From Chloroflexota bacterium (GTDB lineage: Bacteria; Chloroflexota; Anaerolineae; B4-G1; DUEL01): DNA of 64,000 bases. The notes beneath the pieces were generated by a model, which was not told the origin of the DNA, made no database searches, and saw only the letters and a list, made by a program, of their open reading frames with translations. The stretch is taken from positions 95,793 through 159,792 of the forward strand of contig JADBJJ010000027.1 of assembly GCA_014874475.1 (NCBI GenBank). Reading direction: 5' to 3'. Made by a program: the position numbers and the translations under genes. Of this stretch, positions 1 to 15,352 are shown one piece after another (position 1 is the stretch's first letter; each line of letters opens with the position of its first letter).

Positions 1-2
1 TC

Positions 3-941
3 ATTCTTGCCAGTGCTTTCATCGTTTATAAAACCATAACAGAGTGGCATCAACTGCAAAAAGCCCTATGGCGATTAGATTTGCATTGCTTTCTTGTAAG
101 TTTCGGGGTATACTCGGTGAGTGTTATGCTCACTGCGTCTTGCTGGGCACTCATTATGGGGCACTTCAGCGGCGTGCGAACTTTTTGGAAGCATGTGAGC
201 ACATTCTGTCTCACTAATTTGGCTCAAAGGCTCCCCACGCCGTTACCTTACATTTCTGCGCGAACTGAGGCTTATAACGCTCAGGGGATATCTCGGAAGA
301 CTACATTGACTGCAATGGCTATGGAGATCACGGTAACTTTGTTTAGCGCCGCTGTAGTTGCATTAGCGACTCTTGTTCTCGGCGCTCCTCTATATGCAAA
401 AGCGATCAAATACATCTTGTATGTTCTACTTCTATTCCTCTTCTTTCCCGCCATTTTCCCCCAAAAATTCCTTGGCCTTGTGAATCTGGTTGGGGGGCGC
501 TTGAATCGCTGCCCTCTGCCCACTGCGCTGAGCGGAAAACAAGTCTTGGGATGGATAGGGATATTTATTATCATCTGGCTGAATAGCGGTGTACTCTATT
601 ACTACTTGATATCCAGTATCTCTTGGGTCCCAGAAGGCCTTTTGCCATTTCTTGTTAATATCTCTGCAGTGTCCGGCATCGCAGGATGGCTTGGGCAGGC
701 TCTCTTCTTTGTACCCACTCCGGCAGTTCGTCAACTGACAATGGTTTATCTTTTAAGCCTTCGCTTTCCGATGCCCTGGGCTGTTGCCCTTGCTCTGTTT
801 TTCCGCATATCTGTTATGGTGTTTGAACTTGTTTGGGCAGGTCTCTGTCTCTTGATATCTGTTGTAATTGAACGTTTCAGCGAACATTCCACGGTTATCA
901 AAGCCAATCAAGAGGATGGTCATGAAGATCATCATAAATAA
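3..941 (+). CDS. Integral membrane protein, 5'-partial (open from the window edge). Multi-TM, resembles the UPF0104 / lysyl-phosphatidylglycerol-synthase TM-domain (flippase-like) family.
   Basis: The frame is open from nt 3 with no upstream stop, so the gene continues beyond the window. The product is hydrophobic with about 8 predicted TM helices. It lies in a lower-GC block. Confidence 0.4.
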   Translation: MLASAFIVYKTITEWHQLQKALWRLDLHCFLVSFGVYSVSVMLTASCWALIMGHFSGVRTFWKHVSTFCLTNLAQRLPTPLPYISARTEAYNAQGISRKTTLTAMAMEITVTLFSAAVVALATLVLGAPLYAKAIKYILYVLLLFLFFPAIFPQKFLGLVNLVGGRLNRCPLPTALSGKQVLGWIGIFIIIWLNSGVLYYYLISSISWVPEGLLPFLVNISAVSGIAGWLGQALFFVPTPAVRQLTMVYLLSLRFPMPWAVALALFFRISVMVFELVWAGLCLLISVVIERFSEHSTVIKANQEDGHEDHHK

Positions 942-1416
942 AACTCTTTCGTGGTGGGTTGTACTAACTACAATGGCATTGCTGATCAGTTGCACCAGCA
1001 AAGTGCAGTCCACACTTTCTCCTCTCTCTCCTCTTGTTCCAGTCAGTACTGAGGGGTCTTGCCCCAGTATTCCCCCTGTAACCGATACACCCGACCCGTC
1101 GGTTTCTCCCCTTATTATTTCTGAAGTAACGCACACCCGGGAGGGAATAGAGGTTATTGTTATAACGAACATCAGTAGTTCTGAACAGAATTTGGAAGGA
1201 ATGGCACTTCTGAATCCGATTACGATGGAACACGTCGTTTTGCCAAACGTCACGATATCGCCCGGGGGCTCGTTTAAGGTTTATAACGGCCTGGAGGCTG
1301 GGAAAACCAATGAAGGAATAAAATGGCTTGATGAGCCTGTTCTGCGCCAACCGGGAGACTACATTGTTTTGCTCAATCCGGCCGGTCGTGCAATTTGGTA
1401 TTACGTTAATCCATAA
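916..1416 (+). CDS. Lipoprotein with a lamin-tail domain (LTD).
   Basis: ATG at 916 is preceded by AAGAGGA. The N-terminus carries a signal peptide with a lipobox (LLISC). The motifs IISEV, EWxxL-like and 'GDYIVLLNPAG' are typical of the LTD fold. Confidence 0.55.
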   Translation: MVMKIIINKTLSWWVVLTTMALLISCTSKVQSTLSPLSPLVPVSTEGSCPSIPPVTDTPDPSVSPLIISEVTHTREGIEVIVITNISSSEQNLEGMALLNPITMEHVVLPNVTISPGGSFKVYNGLEAGKTNEGIKWLDEPVLRQPGDYIVLLNPAGRAIWYYVNP

Positions 1417-1506
1417 TTACCCGTAAGTGGTATGGACTTTGCCCTTGAACTGTGATAAATTATATAACAACTAAAACCTTATCTGTGTTTGCATAAGGAG
1501 GTAAAA

Positions 1507-2919
1507 ATGAAAAAGAGAAGCCGTTTCCTTACGTTGGGTTTCCTGTCATTGGTTGCTGCAATGCTGGTTGTTTCTGGAGGAGTGCGCGCCAATGCACAGG
1601 GATTTGGAGTTGTATGGGACTCCAGTATTCAGGTGCTGAACCTTAGCGATGCCGAGCCCGCCAACATTGCGATTACGTATTATCGCCAGGATGGGACAGT
1701 CGCGGCATCGCCCACTGATACCGTTCAGCCTGGGCAGTCCAATACTTACTTCCCTATCCATGCACCAGATGGTTTTAACGGTTCAGTGGTGATTTCCTCC
1801 GATAAGCCAGTGGTTGTGGTATCCAACCTGGTCGTTAATACTACCCAGAAAGGGTTGGGAAGTTATGTGGGTTTTCAGCAAGGGGCTCCTACGATTTATT
1901 TCCCCCTTGTGATGAAAGGCAATGCGTACAATACAACGACCTTTAATGTACAAAACACAGGGAGTACGGAAGCAAATATTACGATCCAATTTACACCGGA
2001 AGCAGGCAGTACTTACCCCGCTGTGCCTAATATTACGGACACCATTCAGCCTGGGGCGGCAAAAACCTATGATCTGAGCACATTAAGTCAGTTTAGCGGC
2101 ATCACCAAGTGGGTTGGCTCTGCCACTGTGTCCGTGAACGATACCGCCAATGATTCTATCGCTGGTGTGGCTACCACAGTTAACCAGAGATACCCTGCCG
2201 CATATCAGCTTTACACGTACAATGCTTTCTCCCAAGGTTCCACGACAGTTGTATTGCCGCTCATTCAAGAGAACAACAATGGCAACCGCACCAGTGTGAA
2301 CTGCCAGAACATTAGTTCATCTACTTCAACCACCGTCACGGTCACATATATTCCCGAGTCCGGATATGGGGCTAAACCTGCTGAAACCAAGACCAACGTG
2401 CCTCCCAATGGTGTGGCGGTATTCCTGCAGGATTATCAGGGCACGACCAAGTGGGTAGGCAGTGCAAGGGTCACTTCAGATCCCGCGGTGCCGATGGTTT
2501 GTGTGGTGAATCAGCAGAGACCTGCCTATGGTACTGGTTCGGCGTATGAAGGCTTTGACCCCAATTCCGCTACGGACACCGTTGTCTTGCCGCTGATCCA
2601 GAGCCGCAATGGTAGTGCAACTACAGGATGGGTTTATACTTCAATTAACTTGGCTACCGCAGATGGCAACCCCCATACGATTACGTGTGACTTCAAGCCA
2701 GCCCCTGGTTTCACAGACCCGCCTACTGTCACCAAGACTGGCGCTTCTGTGGTGTTCCTACAAAACGACGTGTATGGTAACGGGAGCAAGTTCATTGGAG
2801 GTGCTATATGCAGTACGTCTGATGGGGCCGGTCTGTTTGCTATTGTGAATCAAAGTCGGCAAAGCACTCCCGTCTTCCCGCGTGACACGCTTGCAACTTA
2901 TAACGGGTTCAACCAATAG
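1507..2919 (+). CDS. Secreted protein with four ~105-aa tandem beta-rich repeats; function unknown.
   Basis: AAGGAGG lies 6 nt before ATG 1507. There is an N-terminal signal peptide (MKKRSRFLTLGFLSLVAAMLVVSGG). Repeated blocks recur (…TKWVGSA.V…VNQ…). Composition is rich in T, N, S, G and V. Confidence 0.6.
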   Translation: MKKRSRFLTLGFLSLVAAMLVVSGGVRANAQGFGVVWDSSIQVLNLSDAEPANIAITYYRQDGTVAASPTDTVQPGQSNTYFPIHAPDGFNGSVVISSDKPVVVVSNLVVNTTQKGLGSYVGFQQGAPTIYFPLVMKGNAYNTTTFNVQNTGSTEANITIQFTPEAGSTYPAVPNITDTIQPGAAKTYDLSTLSQFSGITKWVGSATVSVNDTANDSIAGVATTVNQRYPAAYQLYTYNAFSQGSTTVVLPLIQENNNGNRTSVNCQNISSSTSTTVTVTYIPESGYGAKPAETKTNVPPNGVAVFLQDYQGTTKWVGSARVTSDPAVPMVCVVNQQRPAYGTGSAYEGFDPNSATDTVVLPLIQSRNGSATTGWVYTSINLATADGNPHTITCDFKPAPGFTDPPTVTKTGASVVFLQNDVYGNGSKFIGGAICSTSDGAGLFAIVNQSRQSTPVFPRDTLATYNGFNQ

Positions 2920-2943
2920 CATTTGAGCCCTCGCAGATATCTC

Positions 2944-2990
2944 TGATGGGCTCCCCCTCTTCGGTGGGGGAGCTCATTTTATCCGAGTCG
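2944..2990 (+). terminator. Rho-independent terminator after the repeat-protein gene.
   Basis: A GC stem (gggctcccccTCTTCGGTgggggagctc) is followed by a T-rich run (attttat). Confidence 0.55.
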
Positions 2991-3377
2991 CAACTGATAT
3001 TACTGATATTAAGGACAACTGCCGCCACTTCAACCCCCGAGCTTCTTTTTGCCATTGTTTTGCGCCATCGTCAGCTTGATGCGCCGTGGTGTCTCCAGTT
3101 CCTTACAATGGTGGCACAAAGGGCAAGTCGTCCTCTTGGCCGCATGTTACGATGAGCGGGGGTTCCTCGTTGGGGTCGTGCCAGGGTGGTCAGCGAGAAG
3201 CCACACTGCGTGAGTGGCCCAGTTCGGCAGAGGTGCTTGAGCAATATGGCGCGACAGTAGCGAGACTGACCTGTTCGGTCGCTGGATAACGCCGCGCTGC
3301 GCGCCGTCGGCTTCGCCCGCTGCGACGCTGGGAGGAAACGCTGGCGGTGCATGTTGAGGAAAGGTCGGTGCCCATTG

Positions 3378-3700: not shown

Positions 3701-4582
3701 GTGATTGTTCCAAAAATTGGCATAGAGTTTGAATTTCAAATATTTCCCCATTTACTGCTCTTTCTTATGCGGCCATCAGTTCCACCAGGGAAATCTTCCC
3801 TCTCCTCAACCCTCCGAATAGGCTGCTTACATTACAACACCGACTCCGCGCTTCTACCCGGCACACCGGGTGCTTCAACCCCAATGCATCGGCCACCTTC
3901 TTGAACCCATCCGCATCATCGGTGACCATCACCTCCGCCTGAACCATCTCGGCGACCTCCCGCAACCACTCCTCCAGCGTCTCTGCCGTCTCGTCTTTCA
4001 GAACCCGGATGCTGATGATGACCCTCTTCTGATCATCCACCGCCACCCCGACCGAATCCATTCCCCCCGGCACTTCACGCTGGTGACATCCCCACCGATG
4101 ACGTTCACCCGCCCTCCTTTCTCCAACCACTGGCGACGCAAGCGCTGGGCTCTCTTCCCTGCCGCCTGTATATTCCGATAAACGGTGGTCTTGCCTAATC
4201 CGATGGGCTTCTTCAGGGTACTCCCCAGCAATGCCAGAAAGAGGGCTACGGCGCCGTAACTGAGTTCCAACAAGTACAGAATCCCACTCACCGCTCGTAG
4301 GGCATCCGAATGATGCGCCCGGGAGACACCCGCTGGGTAGGCCCGAAACGTCCGCCGACAACGGAGACAGCGATAGCGCATCGCCTCCACTTCCTCATAC
4401 TCCAGGTCTCGGAGGGGTTTGGGGCACACTTGGAGCGCCTTGAAAAAGCCCCCACCGCAAAAAGGACAACGGGTCGGGGGAGCGGGGCTGGTGTTCACGA
4501 CCGGAATCCGTAGATTGTAAGTCCTCAATGTTCTCACCTCCCACAGAATCTCCCCCTATTTTACCATACCCGGAACAATCAC
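3701..4582 (-). mobile_element. IS1-family insertion sequence (~882 bp) with imperfect terminal inverted repeats (GTGATTGTTCC at both ends).
   Basis: The ends are 3701 gtgattgttccaa and 4572-4582 ggaacaatcac (reverse complement). The internal InsA-like (Zn-finger plus HTH) and InsB-like (DDE) coding regions are present. A related end fragment occurs at 45385-45559. Confidence 0.65.
3765..4537 (-). pseudogene. IS1-family transposase (InsAB'-like) split into two overlapping frames by a frameshift at a G6 run.
   Basis: ORF 3998-4537 carries CPFC…CLRC zinc-finger and HTH motifs plus '…NVIGG'. ORF 3765-4361 continues 'MDSVGVAVDDQ…VTDDADGF', which parallels IS1 InsB 'EMDEQWGYVG…MTDGWPLY'. The frame change maps to the C6/G6 homopolymer at 4063-4068. 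Confidence 0.6.
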
Positions 4583-4666: not shown

Positions 4667-6364
4667 ATGGCGGGTAAAAAAACCCTTCCTGGCCAGTTCC
4701 GCCAGAAAATCCAGTGGTGGTACTGGCGCCATGCCGATGAATGGCCCATTTCGGCTCTCAAGCGATATATCAAAGCTCTCTTTATCCTGTTGTTATGGAC
4801 TCTGACAGCCATTGGGCTCTTCCGCCTCCTGATGTTCCTGCTTCCTGATACTCTCCGCATCCCACTGACAGGCAGAGAGACGGGCGAAGCCTCTAAAGAA
4901 TCCGTTGCCCTCCTGGGCTCCCTCCTTGCTGCCCTGATCGGTTTCGCCCTTCAGCAGTGGAAGGGTCAGGAAGAGGAAGAACGGCGACATCAGGAGGAGG
5001 AAAACAGCGCCATATCCCTGATTGAGGAGAGGCTTTGTGACTCTCGCGGAGATTTATCAGAGATTGCACGCCACTATCTGGACTTCCGAAAGAAAGGAGG
5101 TGTTTGGCAGAGTAACAGAGTCCGGGCGAGGAGAGAAGAGATTTGGGAAAAGTTAGCACCTCCAGAACTCCGATGCGCCATAGCTGTGATGGAAAACCTG
5201 CCGGAAATAAAGGATTTTGATTGGTCGGAACAAGTGGATGCTCTCCACTGGGCCTCTAATTATCTGGATGAAGATTGGCAATCCCGGGCGGTTAACGCCC
5301 TGCTTGATCTGCAGTGGACGGAGAAAGCATGGCGTACGATTCTGTATATGTGGCCTGAGGTATCTCTGGGCAAAGCCCTCTTCATCCCGGACCAACGGAC
5401 CGTTCAGGGCCTTCATTTTTTGAAGTTGAAGGTCAACCCGTTCGGTTCGGAAAGGGCGGAAGCAGATGCCGATCTGCTGAAGGCCCGGGTTATCCCTTCG
5501 TGGTGGGAAAAATTGGCATCCCTCTCTGATGGGCTTTTCTTCACTGCGCCTGGAGGCGGCAGGACTGCCGCTGCGCTTCTCCTGGCCTACGACGTTCTGG
5601 ATAAGAGAACTGCATTTCCCGTCTACTGCCGGATAACGACAGCCCAGTTAGGCCTGGCTGACCTGGCTCGGTGGACAGCACAGGCGATAGCCCGATACAT
5701 CGCGCTTTCCCCTCTCGCTTTCACAAAATGCTCCTACGACGCCAGGCGGGCGATCAAACGGCTCCTTTTCGGCTATATGCCGGCAAACCCCCTGTTGTAT
5801 CTTCAGGAGGCAGGGCTGCCGCTCATAGGAGAGGGCGGAAAGGTGCTGGAGGAGTTCAGGACCCCTCTCGCCGATTCATCCAGGCCAGCCTTCTCTCAGA
5901 CCGATCCTCTCGCCTTGTTGGGCGAAGCCCGCCCAGCGGATTTCCCCCGCACTCTGATTCTGGCAGATGTCCAGGGAGTCGTAGATACCGAAAATGTTGT
6001 CCTCTCTTTTTATGGCTTACACAAAGCACTGGAGCAGGTCGGGGTTACCCTTCAGGTCTTTCTGGCTGCGTCCCCTGCTACAAACCTGCAGAGATACGGA
6101 GAGTTGCTGGAATGGTCGGAGGAAGACCTCCGGGCTTTGCTTCGGAACCGGCTGATCTTCCTTTCCCCCGATGACTCTCTGGATGCCTGGTGCGACATGC
6201 GGGTATGGGAAGAGGATTCAGTGGAGGAGCGGCTTATAAAAGCAGCGGAACGCAACCCGCGCAGGTTGATTCAAAAAGGCAACGCTCTACTTCAGCGCAT
6301 TGGCGAGACAAGGCGCCGGCTGAGACCCGAAGATGTGGATGAAGTGCTGGGCCAGAATCTCTGA
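4667..6364 (+). CDS. Membrane-anchored protein (N-terminal TM helix) with a degenerate P-loop. It is a paralog of the next two NTPases.
   Basis: GGAGGAGA lies before ATG 4667. There is a TM segment (ALFILLLWTLTAIGLFRLLMFLL). The motif 'TAPGGGRTAAAL' corresponds to APAGGGKTAL in the paralog, with K->R in Walker A. 'TLILADVQG' is Walker-B-like. The stop overlaps the next start (TGATG). Confidence 0.55.
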   Translation: MAGKKTLPGQFRQKIQWWYWRHADEWPISALKRYIKALFILLLWTLTAIGLFRLLMFLLPDTLRIPLTGRETGEASKESVALLGSLLAALIGFALQQWKGQEEEERRHQEEENSAISLIEERLCDSRGDLSEIARHYLDFRKKGGVWQSNRVRARREEIWEKLAPPELRCAIAVMENLPEIKDFDWSEQVDALHWASNYLDEDWQSRAVNALLDLQWTEKAWRTILYMWPEVSLGKALFIPDQRTVQGLHFLKLKVNPFGSERAEADADLLKARVIPSWWEKLASLSDGLFFTAPGGGRTAAALLLAYDVLDKRTAFPVYCRITTAQLGLADLARWTAQAIARYIALSPLAFTKCSYDARRAIKRLLFGYMPANPLLYLQEAGLPLIGEGGKVLEEFRTPLADSSRPAFSQTDPLALLGEARPADFPRTLILADVQGVVDTENVVLSFYGLHKALEQVGVTLQVFLAASPATNLQRYGELLEWSEEDLRALLRNRLIFLSPDDSLDAWCDMRVWEEDSVEERLIKAAERNPRRLIQKGNALLQRIGETRRRLRPEDVDEVLGQNL

Positions 6365-7791
6365 TGAGCACAGAACTGCTTGAGTCCGAATCTCCCCCAA
6401 AGCGGTCTGCCGGTTCAGGGGCCAACCCTCCTGGCCCAGTGGCCTTTCGGTTCCTTCGGGCCGAGGAGGAGCCCTGGCTTTCGGCCTGTTTTGTACCTCC
6501 ACCGGAATTCAGCCGCATGGCCGAGTCTCGCTCCTGCGTCATTTTTGGCGAGCCGGGGAGCGGCAAAACGGCCATTTGTCGGGAATTACAGGCGCGCAAT
6601 ACTCGCCCGGATGGTAGGCCCGTGCGCCTGATGACCCCCTGGAGACCTTCTCCGCCCCCGCTGGAGGTCCGCCCCGACCTGGCATGGGTCAGACGACTGG
6701 TGGAAGGGCTACTGGACGCCTGCGCTGCGGCGCTGGTCCAATACCTCTGCCGGTTTCCAGAGGATTACACCCGTGCTCCTACCTGGGCCCAGGACCGCCT
6801 GATCTGGTTCATCCACCGATACACCCTCGGTCAGCCGGAAGTCCGATGGGGGCCGTGGGCAGAAGGCTCCTATCCCGGCGCCCCTCTGATCCGGCGGATT
6901 CTGAGCGCGCCCGTCCCCGTCATTCTGTATGATGATGCCTCTCCGGAGATGGTAATGGCGGAATTGCTCAGCGGATTGGGGGGACTGGGTTTAGAGGGTC
7001 TCTGGGTGATAGCCGACGGCCTGGAAGGGTGGGCCAACGTGGCCTCGGAACATCTGACGGAGAGCCTGAAATCATTTCTTTCCACCCTCTCTTTGTTTGG
7101 CCAATACAGCCCGGTGTACAAGTTGTTCTTGCCAGATGAAATGGAGCCAGCCATCAGCCGCGCCGAGGGGCTGAGCCGACGGCGGATAGAGGGGGTCCGG
7201 ATCCGGTGGGATGCTCCTGCCCTGAAAAGTCTGTTGGAACGGCGCCTGGCTTTTGCGTTCGGGCGGGAGACATTCCCCTTAGAGCAACTCTGTAACGCCC
7301 CTGGGCTACCCGGATGGCTGGAGAAAGTGGGGGGAACATCGCCCAGAGAATGGCTGGACCAGGTGGCATTGCTGGCAGAGTATTACGCGATGCAACCTCA
7401 AAGTGCGCCTATTGACGAGGAAACGTGGAAAACACTGCGGCGGGAACACCCTCTGCGCGTTTACTTGGACGAGGAGAAGCGACAGGTAAGGATTGGAGGC
7501 CGTCTGATAAATCTGGAGGACTTACCAGCAAAAACCTATGAAATGCTCCGCTACCTGTATCGCCACAGTGGCCGGGTGGTCACTAAAGCCGAATTGTACT
7601 TCCGGGCGTATCTCGGCAAGGACCGGGTTCCTCGCCAGGGGGATAATGATTACGAGTGGCCTACCCGATATGCAGGCCTGATAGACACAAACCTCTGGCG
7701 TCTGCGACAAGCGATAGAGCCGGACCCCGACGATCCGGTCCTCCTGATCACTCGCCGGGGGCATGGCGTCATTCTTCAAGTTCGGTGGTGA
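6364..7791 (+). CDS. P-loop NTPase fused to a C-terminal OmpR/PhoB-type winged-helix DNA-binding domain.
   Basis: Walker A is GEPGSGKT and Walker B is LWVIADGLEG. The C-terminus ('TYEMLRYLYRHSGRVVTKAELYFRAYLG…NLWRLRQAIEPD…LLITRRGHGVILQV') matches the trans_reg_C fold. It is translationally coupled to the upstream gene. Confidence 0.6.
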   Translation: MSTELLESESPPKRSAGSGANPPGPVAFRFLRAEEEPWLSACFVPPPEFSRMAESRSCVIFGEPGSGKTAICRELQARNTRPDGRPVRLMTPWRPSPPPLEVRPDLAWVRRLVEGLLDACAAALVQYLCRFPEDYTRAPTWAQDRLIWFIHRYTLGQPEVRWGPWAEGSYPGAPLIRRILSAPVPVILYDDASPEMVMAELLSGLGGLGLEGLWVIADGLEGWANVASEHLTESLKSFLSTLSLFGQYSPVYKLFLPDEMEPAISRAEGLSRRRIEGVRIRWDAPALKSLLERRLAFAFGRETFPLEQLCNAPGLPGWLEKVGGTSPREWLDQVALLAEYYAMQPQSAPIDEETWKTLRREHPLRVYLDEEKRQVRIGGRLINLEDLPAKTYEMLRYLYRHSGRVVTKAELYFRAYLGKDRVPRQGDNDYEWPTRYAGLIDTNLWRLRQAIEPDPDDPVLLITRRGHGVILQVRW

Positions 7792-7896
7792 GAAATGGGT
7801 AAGGTAACTGCAAGCCATCTTAGAGAGATTTGCAATCTCAGCAAGCCATAGTTGTGCCATAATATATCTACACTCTCATAAGGAAGGGGTGAGAAT

Positions 7897-7986
7897 ATGC
7901 CATTTTTCCTATCCGGCGCCTTCCTACCTGGCCCGGCGCAAACCGTGTGCCCACTTCTTCACCCTCCCGCTTCCCTCTTCCCGTAA
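7897..7986 (+). CDS. Small ORF (29 aa, MPFFLSGAFLPGPAQTVCPLLHPPASLFP) with a strong SD, translationally coupled to the following NTPase gene.
   Basis: AAGGAAGGGG sits 7 nt upstream of ATG 7897. Stop TAA (7984-7986) overlaps ATG 7986 of the downstream gene as TAATG. The downstream gene has no SD of its own. Confidence 0.35.
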   Translation: MPFFLSGAFLPGPAQTVCPLLHPPASLFP

Positions 7987-9179
7987 TGGCTTCTCCAGAT
8001 AGCCCTATCGCTCAGATGCCAGGTGCGCCGGAGGTGACCGCATGGCTGAGTTGGGCCGGGTTTCGGTTTGACCCCTTCGGGCCCCTGGATGCTGCCGCAG
8101 ATCCCCACCTCAGCGAATATCTGGTCGGTCACCATATCTTTGCGCGCGTCTGGGGAGACGACTTATCCTGGGTTTTCGCTCCGGCAGGCGGCGGTAAAAC
8201 GGCTTTGCGCATCAGTGTGATGCAGGCCTGCTGGGTCGGACAGGAAACCAATCGCCCATTTCCCATCCCCTATGTACCTCCTTTCCTTTCCTGGGGACAC
8301 GCGCATCCCTCGGAGGAAGAACACCTCGCGGCCCTGGCTCGTGCAGGCGCAATAGCGCTCTTCCTGGCTCTGGCCTACCGTGTCCACTGGTTTCTCCGCT
8401 TGGATAAGTCGGAGCGCCGGCGCGTTGCTGAAGTGCTCCGCTGGAATCTTCCCGGTCCCCTTCCAACCTATCTGGAGCGATGCCGTTCGATCCCCAGTCC
8501 TCAAACTCTGTCGGAGGTTCTGGACCCCGCTTTTATCCTCCGAAGCCCACCAACCCCTGCCGATCTATTGAGGTGGTGCGACGCTCTGGAAGCGGCTTGT
8601 GGGGATGAGGCACCGCCTCCCCTCCGCGAGCGGTGGATGCGACTGAAGGAACTCTTGCGGGATATGGGTTTCCCGAGCATCTACATTTTGCTGGACGGGC
8701 TGGATGGCACGCCCGAAACCATCGCCAATCCGTCAGCTATAGCCCTTTGTATGGAGCCTTTGCTACGATGGGCGGAGAAGTGGGCAGAGGAGCGGGTATT
8801 TCTGAAGGCGTTCCTTCCTGCGGAAACGCAGGCCTTGATGGAGGACCGCTTCCGGGACGTGTTTGCTCCCGCGCGGGTATCCGTCATTCACTGGACGCCA
8901 GACCTGCTGGCGGAGGTCGTTCGCCGACGAGTCTACGTGGCGACCGAGGGCGCCTTTGGTAGCTTAGATGCACTGGCATCCCCGGCCCTGCGGGATATAG
9001 AGACCTTGCTGGCCAAGACGGTCTATCCCCTTCCCCGCGAAATGCTGGTGATCACTCGCCGGGTGATAGAAGAGCACCTCCGGCATGGCGGAAATGGCCT
9101 TTTAGCAGAAGCGGATGTAAAGGCCGCCATCCAGTGGTACCAGACGACATCCATCTATTTCTCTTTTACCCCCGCATGA
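7947..9179 (+). CDS. P-loop NTPase, paralog of 6364-7791 but lacking the winged helix.
   Basis: Walker A is APAGGGKT and Walker B is IYILLDGLDG. The C-terminal region is colinear with the upstream paralog (VSVIHWTPDLLAEVVRRR vs VRIRWDAPALKSLLERRL). The likely true start is ATG 7986, coupled to the uORF; 7947 is the GTG given in the ORF track. Confidence 0.6.
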   Translation: MPTSSPSRFPLPVMASPDSPIAQMPGAPEVTAWLSWAGFRFDPFGPLDAAADPHLSEYLVGHHIFARVWGDDLSWVFAPAGGGKTALRISVMQACWVGQETNRPFPIPYVPPFLSWGHAHPSEEEHLAALARAGAIALFLALAYRVHWFLRLDKSERRRVAEVLRWNLPGPLPTYLERCRSIPSPQTLSEVLDPAFILRSPPTPADLLRWCDALEAACGDEAPPPLRERWMRLKELLRDMGFPSIYILLDGLDGTPETIANPSAIALCMEPLLRWAEKWAEERVFLKAFLPAETQALMEDRFRDVFAPARVSVIHWTPDLLAEVVRRRVYVATEGAFGSLDALASPALRDIETLLAKTVYPLPREMLVITRRVIEEHLRHGGNGLLAEADVKAAIQWYQTTSIYFSFTPA

Positions 9180-9190
9180 GGAGGTTTCAA

Positions 9191-10315
9191 ATGGCTATTA
9201 GACTTTCTCCACCTCCGTACTCACCGGACAAGTTTGTGGATCGGGATGACGAATTAAGGCGGCTGGATGCCATTCTAGAGTCCGGTGAAACGCGCGCTGT
9301 TATTTTTAGAGGAGAGCGCGGTGTCGGGAAATCCTGGCTACCCGCTCACTGGGAATGGCAACTTCGCCGACGTAAAGACCTCCAAGTGCTGCGGCTGGAC
9401 TTGAAGGAGTACAAGGGGAAGGATCCGGGGTGGGCCATGGCACATATGATCCGTCGGGTCAGCGAGAAGATCGGACAGGCTGGAGAGGCACTGGGCGCTG
9501 GCCTGACCGAGATGTCCCGTGCGCTTCTCCAGAATGTCCGTAAGATGGAGAAAAAGATAGTCCTTATCCTGGACCACGTTTATGAATCGGATTGGGCACT
9601 GCTGGCGTTGCTGGAGGAGTACCTGGTGGCTCCCCTGATCGCGGAGCCCCGCGTGTTCATAGTCCTGACAGGGCGCGGCCGATGGTATCCATGGAGGACA
9701 CCTGACCTGAACCTTCGCGCAGAGCGGATGGTTGTGGAACCGCTTCCAAGCGAGGAGGAAACTCAACGACAATTGGAGAAGCAAGCCCCTCAGAGCCGTC
9801 AAAAGGCCAGGGAAATCCACCGTTTGACAGGAGGTAATCCTCTGGCCAATTACCTTCTCGCTGCGGAGCCTCAGCCCGCTCAGGTATCAGAATCAGTTAT
9901 TGAGAGTTTATTGGAGCCGGTCCCGGAGGAAGACCGTCAGAAAATCCGGCAATATTTGGAAGCGCTCTGTGTTCTGCGCGCTTTTGATGAAGAACGGATT
10001 CCTGAAATGATGGCGGTTTATACTGAGAACTCTTCTTACCGGGAGTGGACATATGCTCAGGCCCGGCAAGTACGAGATGAACTGATCCGCTGGGCACTGG
10101 CTCAGTGGGATACTGACCAGAAAGCGTATACGCTGGATAGAATCGTCCGGCAGTTGACAGAAACTCATCTGAAACAAAATCGGCGGGAGAAATGGGTCGC
10201 TCTCCACCAGGCGGCGGCACAGATGTATGAGCGCTGGGCGAGCGATCACCCCGCTTCAGCGCCACGCTGGGAAAAAGAGAGGCAGTATCATCTTGAACGT
10301 TTGCAAAGCCCATGA
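9191..10315 (+). CDS. STAND/NB-ARC-type (AAA_16-like) NTPase, single-domain.
   Basis: GAGGAGG lies before ATG 9191. The motifs are 'FVDRDDELRRLDAIL…RGERGVGKSWL' (Walker A), 'IVLILDHV' (Walker B) and 'TGGNPLA' (GxP motif). Confidence 0.6.
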   Translation: MAIRLSPPPYSPDKFVDRDDELRRLDAILESGETRAVIFRGERGVGKSWLPAHWEWQLRRRKDLQVLRLDLKEYKGKDPGWAMAHMIRRVSEKIGQAGEALGAGLTEMSRALLQNVRKMEKKIVLILDHVYESDWALLALLEEYLVAPLIAEPRVFIVLTGRGRWYPWRTPDLNLRAERMVVEPLPSEEETQRQLEKQAPQSRQKAREIHRLTGGNPLANYLLAAEPQPAQVSESVIESLLEPVPEEDRQKIRQYLEALCVLRAFDEERIPEMMAVYTENSSYREWTYAQARQVRDELIRWALAQWDTDQKAYTLDRIVRQLTETHLKQNRREKWVALHQAAAQMYERWASDHPASAPRWEKERQYHLERLQSP

Positions 10316-10337
10316 CCGTTTACAAGGAGGCAGAGCG

Positions 10338-13300
10338 ATGAGCCCCTTTTTTATCCACCCGGAAGAAGTATACTTGAGCCCTATCGCCACGGTGACGCTG
10401 ATTGGTCGGAAGGGTGAACTGGATGTTTTGGAAAAAGCCATTCGGGATTGCCCCAACCGGTATGTGATTTATCTCACCGGACAGGGCGGCATTGGAAAAA
10501 CTCGACTGCTTCAACATCTCCTTCAAAACCCTCCCGAAGGCTTGCCCCTTCAGGTTGCTATCCAGCCGGTGGATATGTACCACACCATTAACCATACTGT
10601 GGAAGGGCTTCTCCAGTCCATCCAGAAGGTCATCTCCCCCGACGGAAGCGGCTTTGAACGGTATCTGGAGGAACGAGAGAGATGGATGCGGATACCCAGC
10701 GAAGAAAGTAAGCGGTGGCAAGAGCAACGGGAACGGATGATCGGGGCTTTTATCCAGGATTGGAACGCATTGGCGCAGAAAATCCGCATCCTAATCGGCC
10801 TGGATACGGTGGAGCGGCTGTTCCTCCAGGATGACCCTGTGGCTCACGAGTTGGGTCTTCCCCTTAGCACTCCCCTGGTCTACAACTGGCTTCTGAAAGA
10901 TTTCCTCCCCCACCTTCAAAATACGGTGGTCGTTCTGGCCGGCCGCCCTATTCCTATGCCTGTAGTAGAAGAACTCAAAAAAATCGGGGAGCTTATTCAA
11001 GTCTCGCTCTCAGGTTTTACGGAGGAGGAAACTTTAGAATACTTTCAAGCGCTCATCCCGCATCTCCAGGGGAGTTCTGAACCGCGAGACCGCATGGCCG
11101 CCGAGGTATTGTCCCGATGGAACGATGATCTCCGCCGGATGTTTTTCTACGGCCTGCGGGACGACGGCACGGTACGCCCGATCTTCCTTGCCCTGGTCAT
11201 AGACTACCTGACAGTCACTGGGCGGCCCTTTCCGGTAGGACGATCCCTGGTGGAAGTTAAGAGTCTCTCCGAGGAAGATCGGGAGAGGCTTCAAGAGGAG
11301 TTGTTGAAAGGGGTAGAGGAGGAAATTCGCAACGCACTCCATCCAACCGAAGAGATCGTGAGAGTCCTGAGTTGGTTGCACCGGGGGGCCGATGAAAATC
11401 TTTTAGGCCAAATCACCGGTATTGGCGAAGAAACGCTGAAAGAGGCATGTGAGCGGGTTCGCCGCCTCTCCTTTGTGAAAATCCGCCCTGCCGACCAGCG
11501 CCTCTTCCTGCACGATGAAATGTATGCCCTCCTCCGCAGTTTACACGGTGTCATCCCTGAGAGAGCGTTCAAACCCGTCCGGGAATATTATGGAGCGCTC
11601 ATTGATCAGATCAAGAAAAGCATCTGGAGTCTATATGAGGCTCAACCTTATCTTTCCCCTTCAGAGCAAGTTGCCCTGGAAACAACCCGCCTCCGGGAAG
11701 CGATAACGGAGGACCTCCATTACAAATTGCACCGGAGTTTTGACAAAGGGTTTGATCAGTATTTCATCTACGCCGAAGAAGCACTGGCTATGGGTGACGA
11801 GACACTGGATGTGGAGTTGCGAGCGGAATTGGTGGAATTTCTGAGGGAGCAAAACGCCTCCCCTCCAGCCGATGTCCGGGCCGACGCGGCCGTCCGGTGG
11901 GTCAAACGACAGATCAGTGCCGGAAATCTCAACGAAGCGCTATCACTGATCCAGAAAATACGCGAAGAAGCCCGGCATCTGGTTGAACCCGGCGGCCTTC
12001 TTACCCAGGCCGAGTTGGATATTGCCGAGGCCACAGTCTATCTTTACCAGGGAAATCTTGATAAGGCCGAACAACGGTTGTCCGAAGCCCAGCAAAATCT
12101 GGAGCGCTTTCAGGTCTCTCCAGAAACCCCCGTCCGTTTCAATGCTGTGATGGGTCGGTTGTATAATCACTGGGGGTATCTACGGAGGGTACAGGGGCAA
12201 TTTGGTGCTGCAGAGGAGAAGTATCGTAAGGCTCTCCCTTACTGGCGCGCTGCCAGCATGGAGGCTGAGCAAGCCAACACGTTAACCAATCTGGCTTTCG
12301 TGCTGGCATTACGGGGTCGGTTTGACGCCGCTCGCCGTCAGGCGCAGGATGCTTTAAAACTGCGCGGGCAACTGGGGATGACTGGCGCCGTTGCCTTTAC
12401 GCTAAACACTCTGGCCCAGATAGAGATTTATGCCGGGCAGTACCGGGACGCTGAAGATTGGGCCCGTCGGGCCCTGGCTGTGGCCCAGGGTGCCGGATTC
12501 CGTCGTGGCGAGGGACTGGCCCATCTCTCTCTGGCCAGCATTTACCGATATATGAGCGAGCCGCCTTGCCCGGCTGCAAATCGGCGAGAGTGGCTGGAGA
12601 AATCTCTGGAACACAGTTCCAGGGCGCGGGAAATCTTCTCCAAAGAAATCTCAGAGCCAGAGCGGCTCGGTACGGCCTATTACGAGGATGCCATTGCCCA
12701 CCAGGAATTCTGTCGCCCTCCCTTGATAGAAGGCATTGACGTTAAGAGGCACGCCGATCAATCTGAAAAATCGTTTCAGCAGGCAATGAAGATTGCAGAA
12801 GAATGTAGGTTATGGCCCCTTTATTTGGATGCGGGAATGGGTCTGGCTTGGCTTTACTATTATACCGAGGAGAAAGAGAAACTGGCTTCCCACCTGGAAT
12901 CTCTGGAGACATTTCTCCAGGAGCAGTTTGCTTCACTCCAGATTACTCCAACTGCCTCTCCATCAATTGGAGAAGATACAATTCTTGATGTTTTCTCTCA
13001 GAGGGCCCGATGGCACGTTTTAAGGGGAGTGCAGGCACTGGATGGCTTTGACTCGGCCCGTGAGAGCCGGCAAGCGCCGCCGTATCCTTCATTGAGGCGA
13101 GCCGCCCGGGAATTTGCTTTGGCCCTGGAATATGACACCCTGGTGGCGGACAACTTCCGGGACCTTCGTCGAGCCCTTAATCTCATCTATGAGCGGTTGA
13201 AAGTGCTGAACACGGCTGAGTTGAGGGCCTTCTATGAGACCATCACGGAAATGGCTGATGAATTCCCCTGGAAGCCCCGCGAGGAATGGCGTTTGTGGAA

Positions 13301-13355
13301 AGAACTCGTGGATCACTTCGGCCCTTATGATGAACTGCGTCCGCCGGCCTTATGA
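10338..13355 (+). CDS. Large STAND NTPase: N-terminal NB-ARC-like ATPase plus central TPR repeats and a C-terminal domain of unknown function.
   Basis: AAGGAGG lies before ATG 10338. The Walker A is 'LIGRKGELDVLEKAI…YLTGQGGIGKTRLL'. TPR-like repeats fall at roughly residues 600-760 (…ANTLTNLAFVLALRGRFDAARRQAQDALKLR…). Confidence 0.65.
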   Translation: MSPFFIHPEEVYLSPIATVTLIGRKGELDVLEKAIRDCPNRYVIYLTGQGGIGKTRLLQHLLQNPPEGLPLQVAIQPVDMYHTINHTVEGLLQSIQKVISPDGSGFERYLEERERWMRIPSEESKRWQEQRERMIGAFIQDWNALAQKIRILIGLDTVERLFLQDDPVAHELGLPLSTPLVYNWLLKDFLPHLQNTVVVLAGRPIPMPVVEELKKIGELIQVSLSGFTEEETLEYFQALIPHLQGSSEPRDRMAAEVLSRWNDDLRRMFFYGLRDDGTVRPIFLALVIDYLTVTGRPFPVGRSLVEVKSLSEEDRERLQEELLKGVEEEIRNALHPTEEIVRVLSWLHRGADENLLGQITGIGEETLKEACERVRRLSFVKIRPADQRLFLHDEMYALLRSLHGVIPERAFKPVREYYGALIDQIKKSIWSLYEAQPYLSPSEQVALETTRLREAITEDLHYKLHRSFDKGFDQYFIYAEEALAMGDETLDVELRAELVEFLREQNASPPADVRADAAVRWVKRQISAGNLNEALSLIQKIREEARHLVEPGGLLTQAELDIAEATVYLYQGNLDKAEQRLSEAQQNLERFQVSPETPVRFNAVMGRLYNHWGYLRRVQGQFGAAEEKYRKALPYWRAASMEAEQANTLTNLAFVLALRGRFDAARRQAQDALKLRGQLGMTGAVAFTLNTLAQIEIYAGQYRDAEDWARRALAVAQGAGFRRGEGLAHLSLASIYRYMSEPPCPAANRREWLEKSLEHSSRAREIFSKEISEPERLGTAYYEDAIAHQEFCRPPLIEGIDVKRHADQSEKSFQQAMKIAEECRLWPLYLDAGMGLAWLYYYTEEKEKLASHLESLETFLQEQFASLQITPTASPSIGEDTILDVFSQRARWHVLRGVQALDGFDSARESRQAPPYPSLRRAAREFALALEYDTLVADNFRDLRRALNLIYERLKVLNTAELRAFYETITEMADEFPWKPREEWRLWKELVDHFGPYDELRPPAL

Positions 13356-13356
13356 G

Positions 13357-13785
13357 GTGAGGCGATATCGGCTTCAGGATCAGAATGCTCTCCATTCTGC
13401 GATCAACGCCGTCTGCGCCGAGGGGATGATGCGCACCCCCCGCTTTGAGCCCACCCCGGCCTGGGAGCACGCGCTGGCGTGCCCGGATTGCCCCTGCCAC
13501 CTCCTGTTGGTAGCGGAAGAGAGGCCGCATATCGCAGGCTGGTGTCGCCTTTTCCCAACCGACGAGGGTACACTGGAGTTGGGTATCGGGGTGGTGGCCC
13601 CATACCGCCACCGGGGGATTGGCCGCGCACTGCTGGCAAACGCGCTGGACTGGGCCTCGGCTCGGAGGATGCCGGTGGTGCTGGAAACCCGAACCGATAA
13701 CATCCCGGCCGTTCGCCTGTTCACTCGCTTCGGCTTCCACGTGGTCGGGCAGGCGGACGGACACTGGCAAATGCGATATCCGTAA
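13357..13785 (+). CDS. GNAT-family N-acetyltransferase.
   Basis: GTG 13357 lies 2 nt after the stop of the upstream gene. The motif 'YRHRGIGRALLANALDWA…LETRTDNIPAVRLFTRFGF' is the acetyl-CoA-binding motif A/B. Confidence 0.6.
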   Translation: MRRYRLQDQNALHSAINAVCAEGMMRTPRFEPTPAWEHALACPDCPCHLLLVAEERPHIAGWCRLFPTDEGTLELGIGVVAPYRHRGIGRALLANALDWASARRMPVVLETRTDNIPAVRLFTRFGFHVVGQADGHWQMRYP

Positions 13786-13828
13786 CCCCTCTGCGACCTG
13801 CGACTTGCGACCGGTGAGGAGGCAACCC

Positions 13829-15352
13829 GTGGCGACGAACAAGATGGACTTTCCCCAAATTTTCTGGGATTCCAGCCGCGAACGGGCGGAACTAGAACCG
13901 GTTACCGAAACCGACTGCGCCTGCGCGCCCGCTGGGCCCTCTGATCCGCAATCTGCCATCTCCCATCCGCCATCCGCAGGCCTCTGGGGACTTCCCCCCT
14001 CCCTCTATCGCGCCCCCCTCCCCAACGGCCACCAACTGGCTTTCAACCCCGTCGGCCCCGCCGGTGTGGTGGTGCTGAACGGCCCGGCGGCCCATCTCCT
14101 GGCTTCCTTCGCCACCCCAGCCCCTCTGGCCGACCACACCGCCCGCCAACTGGCCGCTCTGGGCCTGCTCACCCCGACCCACGCAATGGAATACGCAAAG
14201 CGCTACACGCCTCACGTCCTCACTCTCTGGCTCCACCTCACCACCCGCTGCAACCTCCGTTGCGCCTACTGCTACGCCCCCCGGGGCGACGCCGATATGC
14301 CCCCAGAGATTGGGCGGGCAGCAGTGGACGGGGCCATCCGTTCCGCGCAGGCCCACGGTTTCCAGGCCCTGAAACTCAAGTACGCCGGCGGTGAGCCTCT
14401 CTTCAATCTCCCCACCCTCCGCGCCGTCCACGAGTGGGCGCGGGCGCGCGCGGCGCAGGCCGGCCTGGAACTCCGGGAGGTGATTCTCACCAACGGGACC
14501 ACCCTCACCCTTGCTCTGCTGGCCTGGCTCCGAGATGAAGGGGTCCGGCTCTCCGTCTCTCTGGACGGCCTGGGTCCGGCCCACGACGGGCAACGGGTGG
14601 CGGCCAGCGGCGACGACTCCTTTGCTGCTACCGCCAGGGGGTTGGAGCGGGCGCTGGCCCTGGGCCTTACCCCTCATCTATCCATTACCGTCACCGCGCA
14701 CAATGTGGACAGGCTGGCAGAGGTGGTGACCTTCGCCCTGGACCGGAACCTCCCCTTCAACCTGAACTTCGTCCGCCCGACCCCCGGTCATCTCAACCTG
14801 GCCCCGGCGCCGGAACGTCTCATCGCCGGCCTGCAGGCCGCCCTCTCTGAGATAGAGCGCCGTCTGCAATCCGCAACCTCTACTCTGCCATCCGCTATCT
14901 GCCATCTGCTGGACCGCTGCGACTTCAGCCTCCCCCACCACTACCCCTGCGGCGCTGGACACGCCTATATCGTGGTGGGTCCGCAGGGAGAACTGGCCCC
15001 CTGCCATATGAAGATGGAGCGCACGGTGGGCACCATTTGGGAGGAAGACCCACTGGCGGCGGTGCAAGGGGAGGACGGGTTCCACAACCCGCCAGTGGAG
15101 GAGAAAGAAGACTGCCGGGAATGCCTCTGGCGCTACGTCTGCGCGGGCGGATGCCCCTTAATGGCCCAACGGCATCGGGGCACCCCCGCCGCTCCATCCC
15201 CCTACTGCGCCGTCTATCAAGCCATCCTCCCCGAACTTCTGCGGCTGGAGGGGTTGCGGTTACTACGCGATAGACCACAAGCCCCAGCCCCTGAACCGCG
15301 GTCAGTTATCAGCGAAGACCCTCGTTCCTCCGGGAGACCGGCGGCCCAGTAG
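13829..15352 (+). CDS. Radical SAM enzyme with a C-terminal SPASM domain and an N-terminal PqqD-like RRE. This is a RiPP/peptide-modifying type.
   Basis: GAGGAGG lies 7 nt before GTG 13829. The radical SAM core is CNLRCAYC (CxxxCxxC). The C-terminal Cys cluster (CGAGH…CHM…CRECLWRYVCAGGCP) is the SPASM domain. The N-terminal ~110 aa contains 'LAFNPVGPAGVVVLNGPAAHLLASF', which is RRE-like. Confidence 0.7.
   Translation: MATNKMDFPQIFWDSSRERAELEPVTETDCACAPAGPSDPQSAISHPPSAGLWGLPPSLYRAPLPNGHQLAFNPVGPAGVVVLNGPAAHLLASFATPAPLADHTARQLAALGLLTPTHAMEYAKRYTPHVLTLWLHLTTRCNLRCAYCYAPRGDADMPPEIGRAAVDGAIRSAQAHGFQALKLKYAGGEPLFNLPTLRAVHEWARARAAQAGLELREVILTNGTTLTLALLAWLRDEGVRLSVSLDGLGPAHDGQRVAASGDDSFAATARGLERALALGLTPHLSITVTAHNVDRLAEVVTFALDRNLPFNLNFVRPTPGHLNLAPAPERLIAGLQAALSEIERRLQSATSTLPSAICHLLDRCDFSLPHHYPCGAGHAYIVVGPQGELAPCHMKMERTVGTIWEEDPLAAVQGEDGFHNPPVEEKEDCRECLWRYVCAGGCPLMAQRHRGTPAAPSPYCAVYQAILPELLRLEGLRLLRDRPQAPAPEPRSVISEDPRSSGRPAAQ

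Follow-up and report, generated by a model that had tools for sequence, protein, structure and literature searches.

The 64,000-nt stretch of contig JADBJJ010000027.1 analysed here (the window) contains seven plus-strand genes, g1 to g7, which form a conserved cassette in filamentous Chloroflexota and match no described system. A preliminary description, made from the letters of the DNA, had listed these seven open reading frames (ORFs), and all of them are present. The first, g1 (4667..6364, preceded by a GGAGG ribosome-binding site, RBS), encodes a protein predicted to be membrane-anchored, whose C-terminal part is an ORC/Cdc6-type AAA+ module similar to the DS-41/Sll1717 ATPases. It is followed by g2 (6364..7791), a second DS-41/Sll1717-like AAA+ ATPase with a C-terminal winged helix of the OmpR/PhoB type, and by g3 (7986..9179), a third, stand-alone ATPase of this ORC/Cdc6-type group. 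Gene g4 (9191..10315) encodes a STAND-type NTPase (ATPase_2/AAA_16 plus DUF7779) without a sensor repeat domain, and g5 (10338..13355) a STAND-type NTPase with a long C-terminal array of MalT-like tetratricopeptide repeats (TPRs), a putative sensor. The last two genes encode a small GNAT acetyltransferase, RimI-like at best (g6, 13357..13785), and a radical SAM/SPASM enzyme (g7, 13829..15352), in which the CNLRCAYC motif is preceded by an N-terminal tail of the form PxI[LF]W ... ExDCAC and by a domain (residues ~50–115) resembling a RiPP recognition element (RRE; RiPP, ribosomally synthesised and post-translationally modified peptide).

Most junctions between these genes are tight. Genes g1 and g2 overlap in a TGATG, the gaps from g3 to g4 (11 nt) and from g6 to g7 (43 nt) each contain GGAGG, that from g4 to g5 (22 nt) contains AAGGAGG, and g5 and g6 are separated by 1 nt. 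Both g6 and g7 start with GTG, the latter at 13829. The start of g3 at 7986 and the long form of g6 are backed by ortholog alignments, the GTG of g6 also by a conserved N-terminal block (RFEPTPAW.HAL). The g2–g3 junction is not tight: an AT-rich spacer, 194 nt long in the window, separates the two genes and is found in every related locus (130–520 nt). The tight packing described earlier holds for g1/g2 and for the junctions from g3 to g7 but not at this spacer. Instead of the single transcription unit suggested at first, there are probably two, g1–g2 and g3–g7, on either side of the conserved spacer, which carries a repeat array and a −10-like box.

Related loci were collected by scanning a single genome of each GTDB species with a pattern, which gave 48 loci, and four further contigs with the same cassette were located in metagenomes through g7 homologs. 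Gene order was read by tblastn with the seven window proteins as queries, loci whose sequence extends at least 9.3 kb beyond g2 being counted as complete (n = 24). In all 24 complete loci, g3, g4, g5 and g7 follow g2 in the same order. The acetyltransferase gene g6 is found in 17 of them and is considered accessory because it is missing from about 30% of loci (among them L007, L012, L040, L044, L014, L020, L023 and L039), where g5 is followed directly by g7 or a short non-coding gap lies between the two. A large plus-strand g1-like ORF lies upstream of g2 in related loci, and the order g1-g2-g3-g4-g5-(g6)-g7 is kept down to about 30% identity. Across loci, gene identities co-vary (Spearman rho 0.36–0.90), with the highest value for g3 and g4 (0.90) and the lowest for pairs that include the GNAT gene; g3 and g7 are the best-conserved cassette proteins. 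Every contig examined for a g7 homolog places g7 inside the cassette, and the flanking genes differ from locus to locus.

The cassette is specific to Chloroflexota of the Anaerolineae/Thermoflexales/Caldilineales lineages. All 95 full-length homologs of g2 come from Chloroflexota where the source names them, and the 48 loci belong almost without exception to metagenome-assembled genomes (MAGs) of Anaerolineae, Anaerolineales, Thermoflexales or Caldilineales. The GC content of the cassette follows that of its host, from 0.39 to 0.72. A single MAG may hold two or three deeply divergent cassettes, as does PO_4 (L003, L021 and L035). The most divergent variant, L138, lies on the minus strand of contig Ga0079997_119042 (1266–11265), and its g7 is 36% identical. 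It encodes a g1-like protein (738 aa, Walker A GSGRT), g3, g4, g5 (1214 aa) and a g7 with two copies of the DCAC motif treated below, and it lacks g2 with its winged helix, the GNAT gene and the repeat array. The exceptions are a g2 on its own (L017), an extra g4/g5 pair (L038) and a second radical SAM gene (L034). The gene set is thus a genuine, conserved and co-inherited unit in more than 40 filamentous Chloroflexota genomes, and the coincidental adjacency that the preliminary description had allowed for does not agree with the constant order in the 24 complete loci.

AAA+ proteins and the g2–g3 spacer

That g1–g3 are paralogous P-loop proteins, as first proposed, is borne out by profile–profile comparisons with hhalign, in which g1(238–562), g2(23–360) and g3(10–383) match one another with probabilities of 99.6–99.9%; no significant profile match connected this group with g4–g5. 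The shared region is an ORC/Cdc6-like AAA+ module of ~320 residues. A Walker B of the type DGL[DE]G had been ascribed to all three proteins, which is accurate for g2 (Walker A GEPGSGKT, Walker B IADGLEG) and g3 (GGGKT and LDGLDG) but not for g1 (GGGRT, with ILADVQG in the Walker B region). The Lys-to-Arg change in the Walker A of g1 characterizes the window's subclade, distant g1 orthologs having GxGKT. This protein is also the predicted membrane-anchored member noticed earlier, as hydropathy places two hydrophobic N-terminal segments at about residues 34–60 and 77–98, followed by a charged, helical linker.

Domains and systems were assigned with Pfam, NCBIfam and PADLOC scans of the window proteins. 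Residues ~366–475 of g2 match Trans_reg_C (31.1 bits, Pfam cut-off 26.2), which substantiates the OmpR-type winged helix-turn-helix (wHTH) of the first reading, and the RpaB, YycF and MtrA models match this region in 19 of 31 orthologs. The same protein has weak Pfam matches to AAA_16 and ORC-CDC6-like, and g1 and g3 have no Pfam match. Two NCBIfam models recognize the AAA+ modules, NF047389 (P-loop ATPase, Sll1717 family; cut-off 75 bits) and NF053860 (DS41_1 anti-phage protein; cut-off 370 bits). Their respective scores are 63.3 and 48 bits with g2, 40.8 and 79.6 with g3, and 16.5 and 16.4 with g1, all below the cut-offs. Both models are matched by 31 out of 31 g2 orthologs and 45 out of 45 g3 orthologs, none of them reported above the cut-offs. 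A profile of g3 aligned end to end with the DS-41 sequence (hhalign probability 97.7%, E 1.5e-12, 351 columns). DS-41 (‘AAA2’, WP_033812887.1), from E. coli, is an ATPase that forms a single-gene anti-phage system and was validated by the DefensePredictor work (Science 2026; PMC13092281). A literature search on Sll1717 found nothing.

Judged by these profile comparisons, the trio is not an orphan group but consists of ORC/Cdc6-like AAA+ proteins homologous to the DS-41/Sll1717 family, of which DS-41 has been validated as an anti-phage protein but is mechanistically unstudied. The likeness to DS-41 extends over the full length of the ~320–400-residue module of g1–g3, with an N-terminal NPF/DPF...AE.EP motif, the Walker A, a Walker B of the form hhhhD(G/K)LD and a helical lid in common. 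DS-41 is encoded by a single gene, whereas the cassette has three diverged paralogs, one of them membrane-anchored with the K-to-R change and another fused to the OmpR-type wHTH, and these are always accompanied by two STAND NTPases and a radical SAM enzyme. The scores (48–80 bits against 370, and 41–63 against 75) are far below the cut-offs. The fold of g3 is ORC/Cdc6-, BrxC- and TnsC-like, an AAA+ alpha/beta core with a helical lid, and is structurally closest to Orc/Cdc6; PDB searches with g3 (as single sequence and as profile) and with g4 returned nothing useful. The cassette is nevertheless set apart from ORC/Cdc6 and BrxC by an identity of 12–17%, by the OmpR/PhoB type of its winged helix, and by the lack of conserved replication genes nearby and of the BREX partners PglX, PglZ and BrxL.

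The g2–g3 spacer begins with an array of direct repeats. In the window, this array occupies 7788..7814 on the plus strand, with the units GTGAG, GTAAG and GCAAG at 7788, 7799 and 7810, spaced 11 nt apart and beginning on the g2 stop codon. Across loci, it consists of two to four GT[GA]AG repeats with a unit consensus of about T[GT]GTGAG[AG]T. The 56 nt after the g2 stop contain on average 2.05 motifs in 39 loci, compared with 0.25 in shuffled sequences (the highest of 1000 shuffle means being 0.69) and 0.07–0.21 in control regions, and 32 of the 44 successive spacings are exactly 11 nt. The array is conserved in about 37 loci (at the 3′ end of g2 in L002–L045). The three-unit pattern occurs once in the 64-kb window, where none is expected. 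It is absent from L138, which has no g2, and from L017, which has g2 but no g3.

Direct repeats one helical turn apart are the classic operator arrangement of OmpR/PhoB regulators. Because its 11-nt period fits the OmpR-type winged helix of g2, the array is probably the operator of this domain, as a site predicted from sequence. PhoB/OmpR systems likewise combine a Trans_reg_C winged helix with direct repeats arranged in tandem at a period of 11 bp, ahead of a promoter-like element, but g2 has neither a receiver domain nor a histidine kinase, its DNA-binding domain being coupled to, and presumably driven by, an AAA+ ATPase. The Pho box repeat is TGTCA, compared with TGTGAG in the array.

About 40–75 nt downstream of the array lies an extended −10-like box, TGcCATAAT (7850..7858, plus strand), the candidate promoter of g3–g7. 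It is part of a GCCATAAT block that is conserved among the close relatives L002, L015, L006 and L009, and a strict sigma-70 scan did not find it. A 29-codon ORF (MPFFLSGAF..., 7897..7986, plus strand) with a strong RBS follows, and its TAA overlaps the ATG of g3 (TAATG). The MPF[FL]L start is restricted to close relatives, in ORFs of 12–52 codons, and L003 has lost it; conservation of the ATGCCATTTTT start region is limited to close relatives as well. This ORF is of doubtful significance and could represent either a leader ORF or no more than a conserved 5′ untranslated region.

STAND NTPases, acetyltransferase and radical SAM enzyme

On the basis of their sequences, g4 and g5 are paralogous STAND NTPases of the ATPase_2/AAA_16 type, g4 and g5(20–401) giving a 98% hhalign match. 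The Pfam matches of g4 are ATPase_2 (41.2 bits, cut-off 33.2), AAA_16 and DUF7779. Those of g5 are TPR_12 (64 bits), which confirms the TPR region described earlier, TPR_MalT (45.5 bits) and, weakly, AAA_16 and NACHT. Conservation extends to both of its Walker motifs, A (GQGGIGKT) and B (LDTVE). STAND-class NTPases thus do adjoin a GNAT and an RRE-containing radical SAM/SPASM enzyme. The assignment of both proteins to NB-ARC is not supported as such; g4 matches ATPase_2/AAA_16 with DUF7779 and g5 matches AAA_16 with TPRs, whereas PF00931 matched neither window protein at E ≤ 0.01 and its only hit was a 20-bit partial match in the g5 of L138. In three loci, g4 and g5 are fused in frame into proteins of ~1400 residues with two tandem STAND modules and TPRs (L012:12828–16976, L013:12868–17124 and L016:7513–11625), and these single-frame fusions argue for physical cooperation of the two.

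The architecture had been compared with an AfsR/SARP-type regulator dispersed over separate polypeptides. This analogy is loose: a wHTH and TPRs are present, but no BTAD domain was found in any protein from g1 to g7, the wHTH stands at the C-terminus of an ORC-like ATPase instead of on a STAND protein, and the AfsR model matches only the TPR region of g5 (30.8 bits, cut-off 1430). Proteins g4 and g5 share with Avs and with MalT/AfsR-type STAND proteins the core of P-loop, helical and winged-helix (DUF7779) domains, and g5 has in addition the MalT-like TPR sensor array. However, there is no fused effector domain as in Avs and no match to any Avs or PADLOC model; there is also no fused DNA-binding domain or N-terminal wHTH as in MalT/AfsR. 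A further difference from all of these proteins is the split of the cassette NTPase into a sensor-less and a sensor-bearing paralog.

Protein g6 is a GNAT, as initially recognized (Acetyltransf_1, 62.7 bits). The identity of g7 as a radical SAM/SPASM enzyme is equally secure, given its match to Radical_SAM (52 bits) and the cysteines C141, C145, C148, C374, C392, C429, C432, C438, C442 and C460, which are invariant in 58 sequences and make up the CxxxCxxC motif plus a seven-Cys SPASM set. The PqqD Pfam model does not match g7. Its AlphaFold2 (AF2) model (pLDDT 87.5), compared with solved structures by Foldseek, has an RRE-like β-β-β-α-α unit at residues 60–110, and the top structural match is CteB, both of which support the RRE claimed for this protein. 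CteB (5wgg) is the closest solved relative by sequence and by structure (Foldseek E 1e-19, 457 columns, TMt 0.70). None of the NCBIfam family cut-offs is reached: TIGR04064 (146 bits, cut-off 519), PapB (122 and 340), QhpD (122 and 453), SCIFF (113 and 425) and FxsB (57.6 and 370). As modelled, g7 is a CteB-like RRE-radical SAM-SPASM enzyme. The PADLOC models for prokaryotic viperins (pVip) match residues 134–254 of g7 only, which is the generic radical SAM core, and the RRE and SPASM regions of g7 do not fit a viperin; viperins rank far below CteB and anSME.

Like the CteB, PapB, QhpD and nif11-type thioether maturases, g7 combines an N-terminal RRE with CxxxCxxC and a seven-Cys SPASM, and a Cys-containing target would be expected, as all of these nearest families act on Cys-containing peptides or proteins. 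It differs from them in having no separate precursor gene, in its unique N-terminal tail, PxILW...(ExDCAC)1-3, and in its setting among NTPases, not proteases and exporters. In the g7 proteins of three metagenome contigs (L178, L229 and L238), an in-frame tandem (HAFTF)n insertion of five to seven units lies between the RRE and the radical SAM core.

The N-terminal tail is the hallmark of this radical SAM family. Before the RRE, it comprises a conserved P-x-I-L-W and then one to three copies of E-x-D-C-A-C, about 20–25 residues apart (usually two copies at a distance of about 23). In the window, the DCAC motif is encoded at 13913..13924 on the plus strand (residues 29–32); residues 11–13 form a beta strand in the AF2 model, with the RRE-like unit after it, and the first of the usual two repeats has been lost. 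Among the best 120 homologs, DCAC is present twice in 86, once in 26 and three times in two. The remaining six are short or N-terminally truncated gene calls, and P0241, the one truncated call that was checked, has two DCAC copies in the in-frame DNA upstream. The motif is always in frame with, and fused to, the enzyme.

No conserved small ORF or precursor-peptide gene was found in the spacers or upstream or downstream of the cassette, in about 45 loci. Candidate precursors in the g2–g3 spacer, after g7 and before g1 were rejected, the clustering of small ORFs from these regions having produced only alternate-frame or low-complexity artefacts. Neither of the two further DCAC-coding matches in the window (35484 and 47191) is in the reading frame of a real gene. 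When metagenomes were scanned for DCAC motifs in pairs, the matches listed came mostly from low-complexity DNA rich in CA, from Zn-ribbon repeats and from metallochaperones rich in His, together with at least 11 ordinary members of the g7 family and no stand-alone peptide. A literature search on the DCAC motif in radical SAM enzymes found nothing. The tail can be read in two ways, either as a possible leader plus core joined in cis to the enzyme, acting as self-substrate or pseudo-substrate, or as a possible metal or redox site.

Flanking DNA and accessory partners

An IS1595-like transposase remnant (3765..4537, minus strand) lies upstream of g1, outside the cassette; its N-terminus is a Zn ribbon, its reading frame is interrupted by a frameshift, and only part of the DDE region is present. 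The flanking insertion sequence (IS) element of the first reading is therefore present, but only as a frameshifted remnant (NCBIfam IS1595, 26.5 bits against a cut-off of 75) that has no inverted repeats around it and does not occur in related loci. This flank is incidental to the cassette. The short-read contig L001 breaks at the remnant. A 162-nt segment at 45400–45559 is 89% identical, in reverse orientation, to the part at 3701–3859 and represents a second fragment of the element. Beside the remnant, a short minus-strand ORF (3071–3352) encodes a ComEA-like helix-hairpin-helix segment (…GPITAQRIVAYREANGPFGAIDEIPDVPSIGP…). The GC content of positions 1–3000 (0.46–0.52) is markedly below that of the rest of the window; this region encodes a multi-transmembrane protein (81–941) and a secreted-looking protein of 476 residues, rich in Thr, Ser, Asn and Val (1489–2919), for which an NCBIfam scan gave no match. 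No second cassette, tRNAs or Rfam families were found in the window.

In some loci, the flanks contain restriction-modification, CRISPR-Cas I-B/III-B, WYL, mad2 and PDC genes. A gene for an NYN protein (LabA-like, putative nuclease) abuts the cassette in seven loci, after g7 in L020, L039, L023, L029 and L027 and divergently before g1 in L041 and L011. Effector-associated domain 7 (EAD7, PF19960) is carried by g4-like or g1-like proteins in six loci of distant clades, with one copy per locus in the available DNA (L036:295–2940, L037:1232–2572, the g1-like ORFs of L020/L039, L051:4336–6117 and L027:12943–14439); in L051 the carrier is g4. SWIM-type CxC...CxH proteins of ~90 residues are encoded just after g7 (L050:11575–11859, L051:11731–12006, L051:12238–12513 and L031:19658–19879), and small proteins with two transmembrane (TM) segments and ~200-residue TM plus coiled-coil proteins after g7 in L015, L037, L051 and L052.

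Possible function of the cassette

No Pfam, NCBIfam or PADLOC model assigns the gene set to a described system and none emerged from the literature searched, in accordance with the initial impression. The combination is undescribed: its components come from known superfamilies and, generic domains apart, fall below the curated thresholds of every named family. The closest theme at system level is that of NTP-dependent conflict systems with peptide-processing modules, such as the VMAP/FtsH ternary and FxSxx-COOH systems (Haft & Basu 2011; PMC7159879). In conflict systems of this kind from multicellular bacteria, Kaur et al. (2020; PMC7159879) described peptide modification by radical SAM-SPASM enzymes that is coupled to AP-ATPase-TPR proteins. 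The cassette shares with these systems a radical SAM-SPASM enzyme coupled to STAND (AP-ATPase)-TPR proteins, multicellular or filamentous hosts and, in some variants, EAD domains. It differs in having no vWA-MoxR pair, zincin peptidase, TIR or gene for an FxSxx, RxD or acidic precursor, in the fusion of its Cys motif to the enzyme, and in the presence of the DS-41-like AAA+ trio and of a wHTH with a predicted operator; in addition, the cassette occurs in Chloroflexota and not in Actinobacteria. An FxSxx-COOH precursor, the zincin peptidase/FxsB, FxsT and vWA-MoxR were detected neither in the cassette nor in conserved flanks. The C-terminus of g3 (...YFSFTPA), which shows poor conservation, is not of the FxSxx-COOH form.

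The most likely reading of the cassette, with a probability of roughly 40%, is a self-contained, self-regulated, two-tier NTPase-switch system of the conflict or defence type. In the scheme that we infer for g2 binding, hetero-oligomer formation, the g7 substrate and the biological role (immunity or conflict), the first tier (g1–g2) would be a membrane-tethered AAA+ paralog working with a second AAA+ ATPase, which has a winged helix of the OmpR/PhoB type at its end. The second tier (g3–g7) would comprise the third AAA+ paralog, the STAND pair acting as a unit with g4 as helper and g5 as TPR sensor, the optional GNAT and the RRE-radical SAM-SPASM enzyme. Alone or as a hetero-oligomer with g1 and g3, in the manner of ORC/Cdc6 subunits, g2 would bind the array at the end of its own gene and so control the g3–g7 promoter. 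The g4/g5 pair would sense a ligand through the TPR array and oligomerize. Enzyme g7 would cross-link or otherwise modify a Cys-containing target, most probably its own N-terminal DCAC tail or alternatively another cassette protein, and g6, where present, would add an acetyl group. The output would be delivered by the modified product or by accessory effectors such as the NYN nuclease, which is seen in a quarter of loci. A role in conflict or immunity appears the most likely, since the AAA+ trio is homologous to DS-41, g4 and g5 form a STAND-TPR pair, some loci have EAD7 and NYN partners, the cassette is distributed patchily and may occur in several copies per genome, and radical SAM-SPASM enzymes are already known alongside AP-ATPase-TPR modules from conflict systems of multicellular organisms among bacteria (PMC7159879).

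Several observations weigh against this proposal. The argument for a conflict role is one of association, and PADLOC has no model that fits any of the five NTPases. The flanks in the window (PHP, HAD, ABC and the IS remnant) are not a defence island, and those across loci are mostly housekeeping genes (SecDF, PheT, SufBD, GyrB, S20 and ABC transporters). The EAD7, NYN and SWIM partners are absent from the window copy. No g2 relatives, only generic radical SAM enzymes, were found on IMG/VR contigs, and there is no phage link in either direction. The agreement of cassette GC with host GC suggests long residence and not rapid horizontal turnover. With regard to the individual steps, the array could in principle work at the RNA level, and the DCAC segment is of low confidence in the AF2 model (pLDDT 50–57). 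As DCAC is also found in zinc-ribbon repeats and in His-rich metallochaperone loops, the tail may, by analogy, be a metal or redox site and not a substrate.

Some of these observations would suit a signal-transduction or transcription-regulatory module without any conflict role, which is possible but rather unlikely. Here, a MalT/AfsR-like ATP-dependent switch would have DNA binding by g2 as its output, with a regulon that may exceed the cassette, and the radical SAM enzyme, with its oxygen-sensitive Fe-S chemistry, and the GNAT would tune a component post-translationally, for instance as a redox or metabolic sensor. The OmpR-type wHTH of g2 next to an 11-nt phased array, the MalT-like TPR region of g5, the mostly housekeeping neighbours, the amelioration of cassette GC to the host, the long-term retention of deep paralogous cassettes and the similarity of the CxC motifs in the tail to redox or metal switch motifs are all in its favour. 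Yet the sole array in the 64-kb window sits inside the cassette, with no outside regulon visible, and L138 has kept the other core genes without g2 and the array, from which DNA binding appears dispensable for the core function. The DS-41 homology, EAD7 domains and NYN partners also point to conflict systems, and a patchy distribution in variable genomic locations speaks against the regulatory role as well. A RiPP-type cluster is unlikely. It would require g7, with g6, to mature a peptide that is encoded elsewhere or released by a protease from the N-terminus of g7, and the NTPases to regulate this pathway specifically or to serve as scaffolds, a role that FxsT and HaaT, both TPR/STAND proteins, may play in triceptide clusters. 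This would agree with the full RRE-radical SAM-SPASM architecture of g7 and its closest relatives, which are RiPP maturases, with the repeated ExDCAC behind a conserved PxILW, which looks like a leader with multiple cores, and with the weak match of the g5 TPR region to HaaT (E 3.5e-9). GNATs N-acetylate some RiPPs, which also fits. Against it, neither the cassette nor its neighbourhood has a conserved gene for a separate precursor, a protease or an exporter, five of its six core genes encode NTPases, the FxsB score is far from its cut-off, FxsT gives no match, and a peptide that is part of a cytoplasmic enzyme of 500 residues would be no obvious export substrate.

Chance adjacency and a mobile-element role are essentially excluded. 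As part of a mobile element, the ORC/TnsC/MuB-like AAA+ proteins would select transposition targets or initiate replication of an integrated element, and the variable genomic location and the IS remnant beside the window copy could be taken in this sense; but no transposase, integrase, terminal repeat or tRNA target is conserved beside the cassette, and the remnant is specific to the window, which makes this role highly improbable. Two unrelated units that happen to abut, an acquired lower-GC NTPase island (g1–g5) and a resident higher-GC GNAT-radical SAM pair, would account for the difference in third-position GC (GC3) between g1–g5 (0.57–0.66) and g6–g7 with the downstream genes (0.76) in the window, and for the IS remnant upstream of g1. 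This is hardly credible. The same gradient, with g1, g4 and g5 low and g7 high, recurs in most loci whatever the GC content of the host and is thus intrinsic to the gene families; together with the constant order of g5 and g7 in the 24 complete loci and the position of all g7 homologs examined within the cassette, it rules out a foreign low-GC island beside native g6–g7.

With the repeat array, DNA binding by the putative AAA+-driven OmpR-type regulator can readily be assayed, and the operon logic becomes directly testable. The DCAC tail poses a concrete biochemical question, namely whether it is a cis-fused maturase substrate or a new N-terminal metal or redox module. We know of no precedent for a radical SAM maturase with its substrate fused in cis. 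It is a speculative and unlikely idea that g7 may be the first maturase in which the leader (PxILW, which would dock in cis on the RRE) and the core repeats (ExDCAC, one to three copies) belong to the enzyme's own polypeptide. A five-NTPase sensor and switch with a built-in AAA+-driven transcription factor of the Pho-box type would then control when the enzyme is made and fired, and its product, either an N-terminal peptide with a cross-link or a cofactor bound to the protein, would be the signal or toxin in a previously unrecognized immune-like system of filamentous Chloroflexota. If the cassette does act in conflict or defence, it would represent an additional multi-component architecture, in which a trio of DS-41-like AAA+ proteins is combined with a STAND sensor split in two and a radical SAM effector, in a phylum where immunity has hardly been explored, and it would provide the mechanistically opaque DS-41/Sll1717 ATPase family with a genomic context that includes testable partners.

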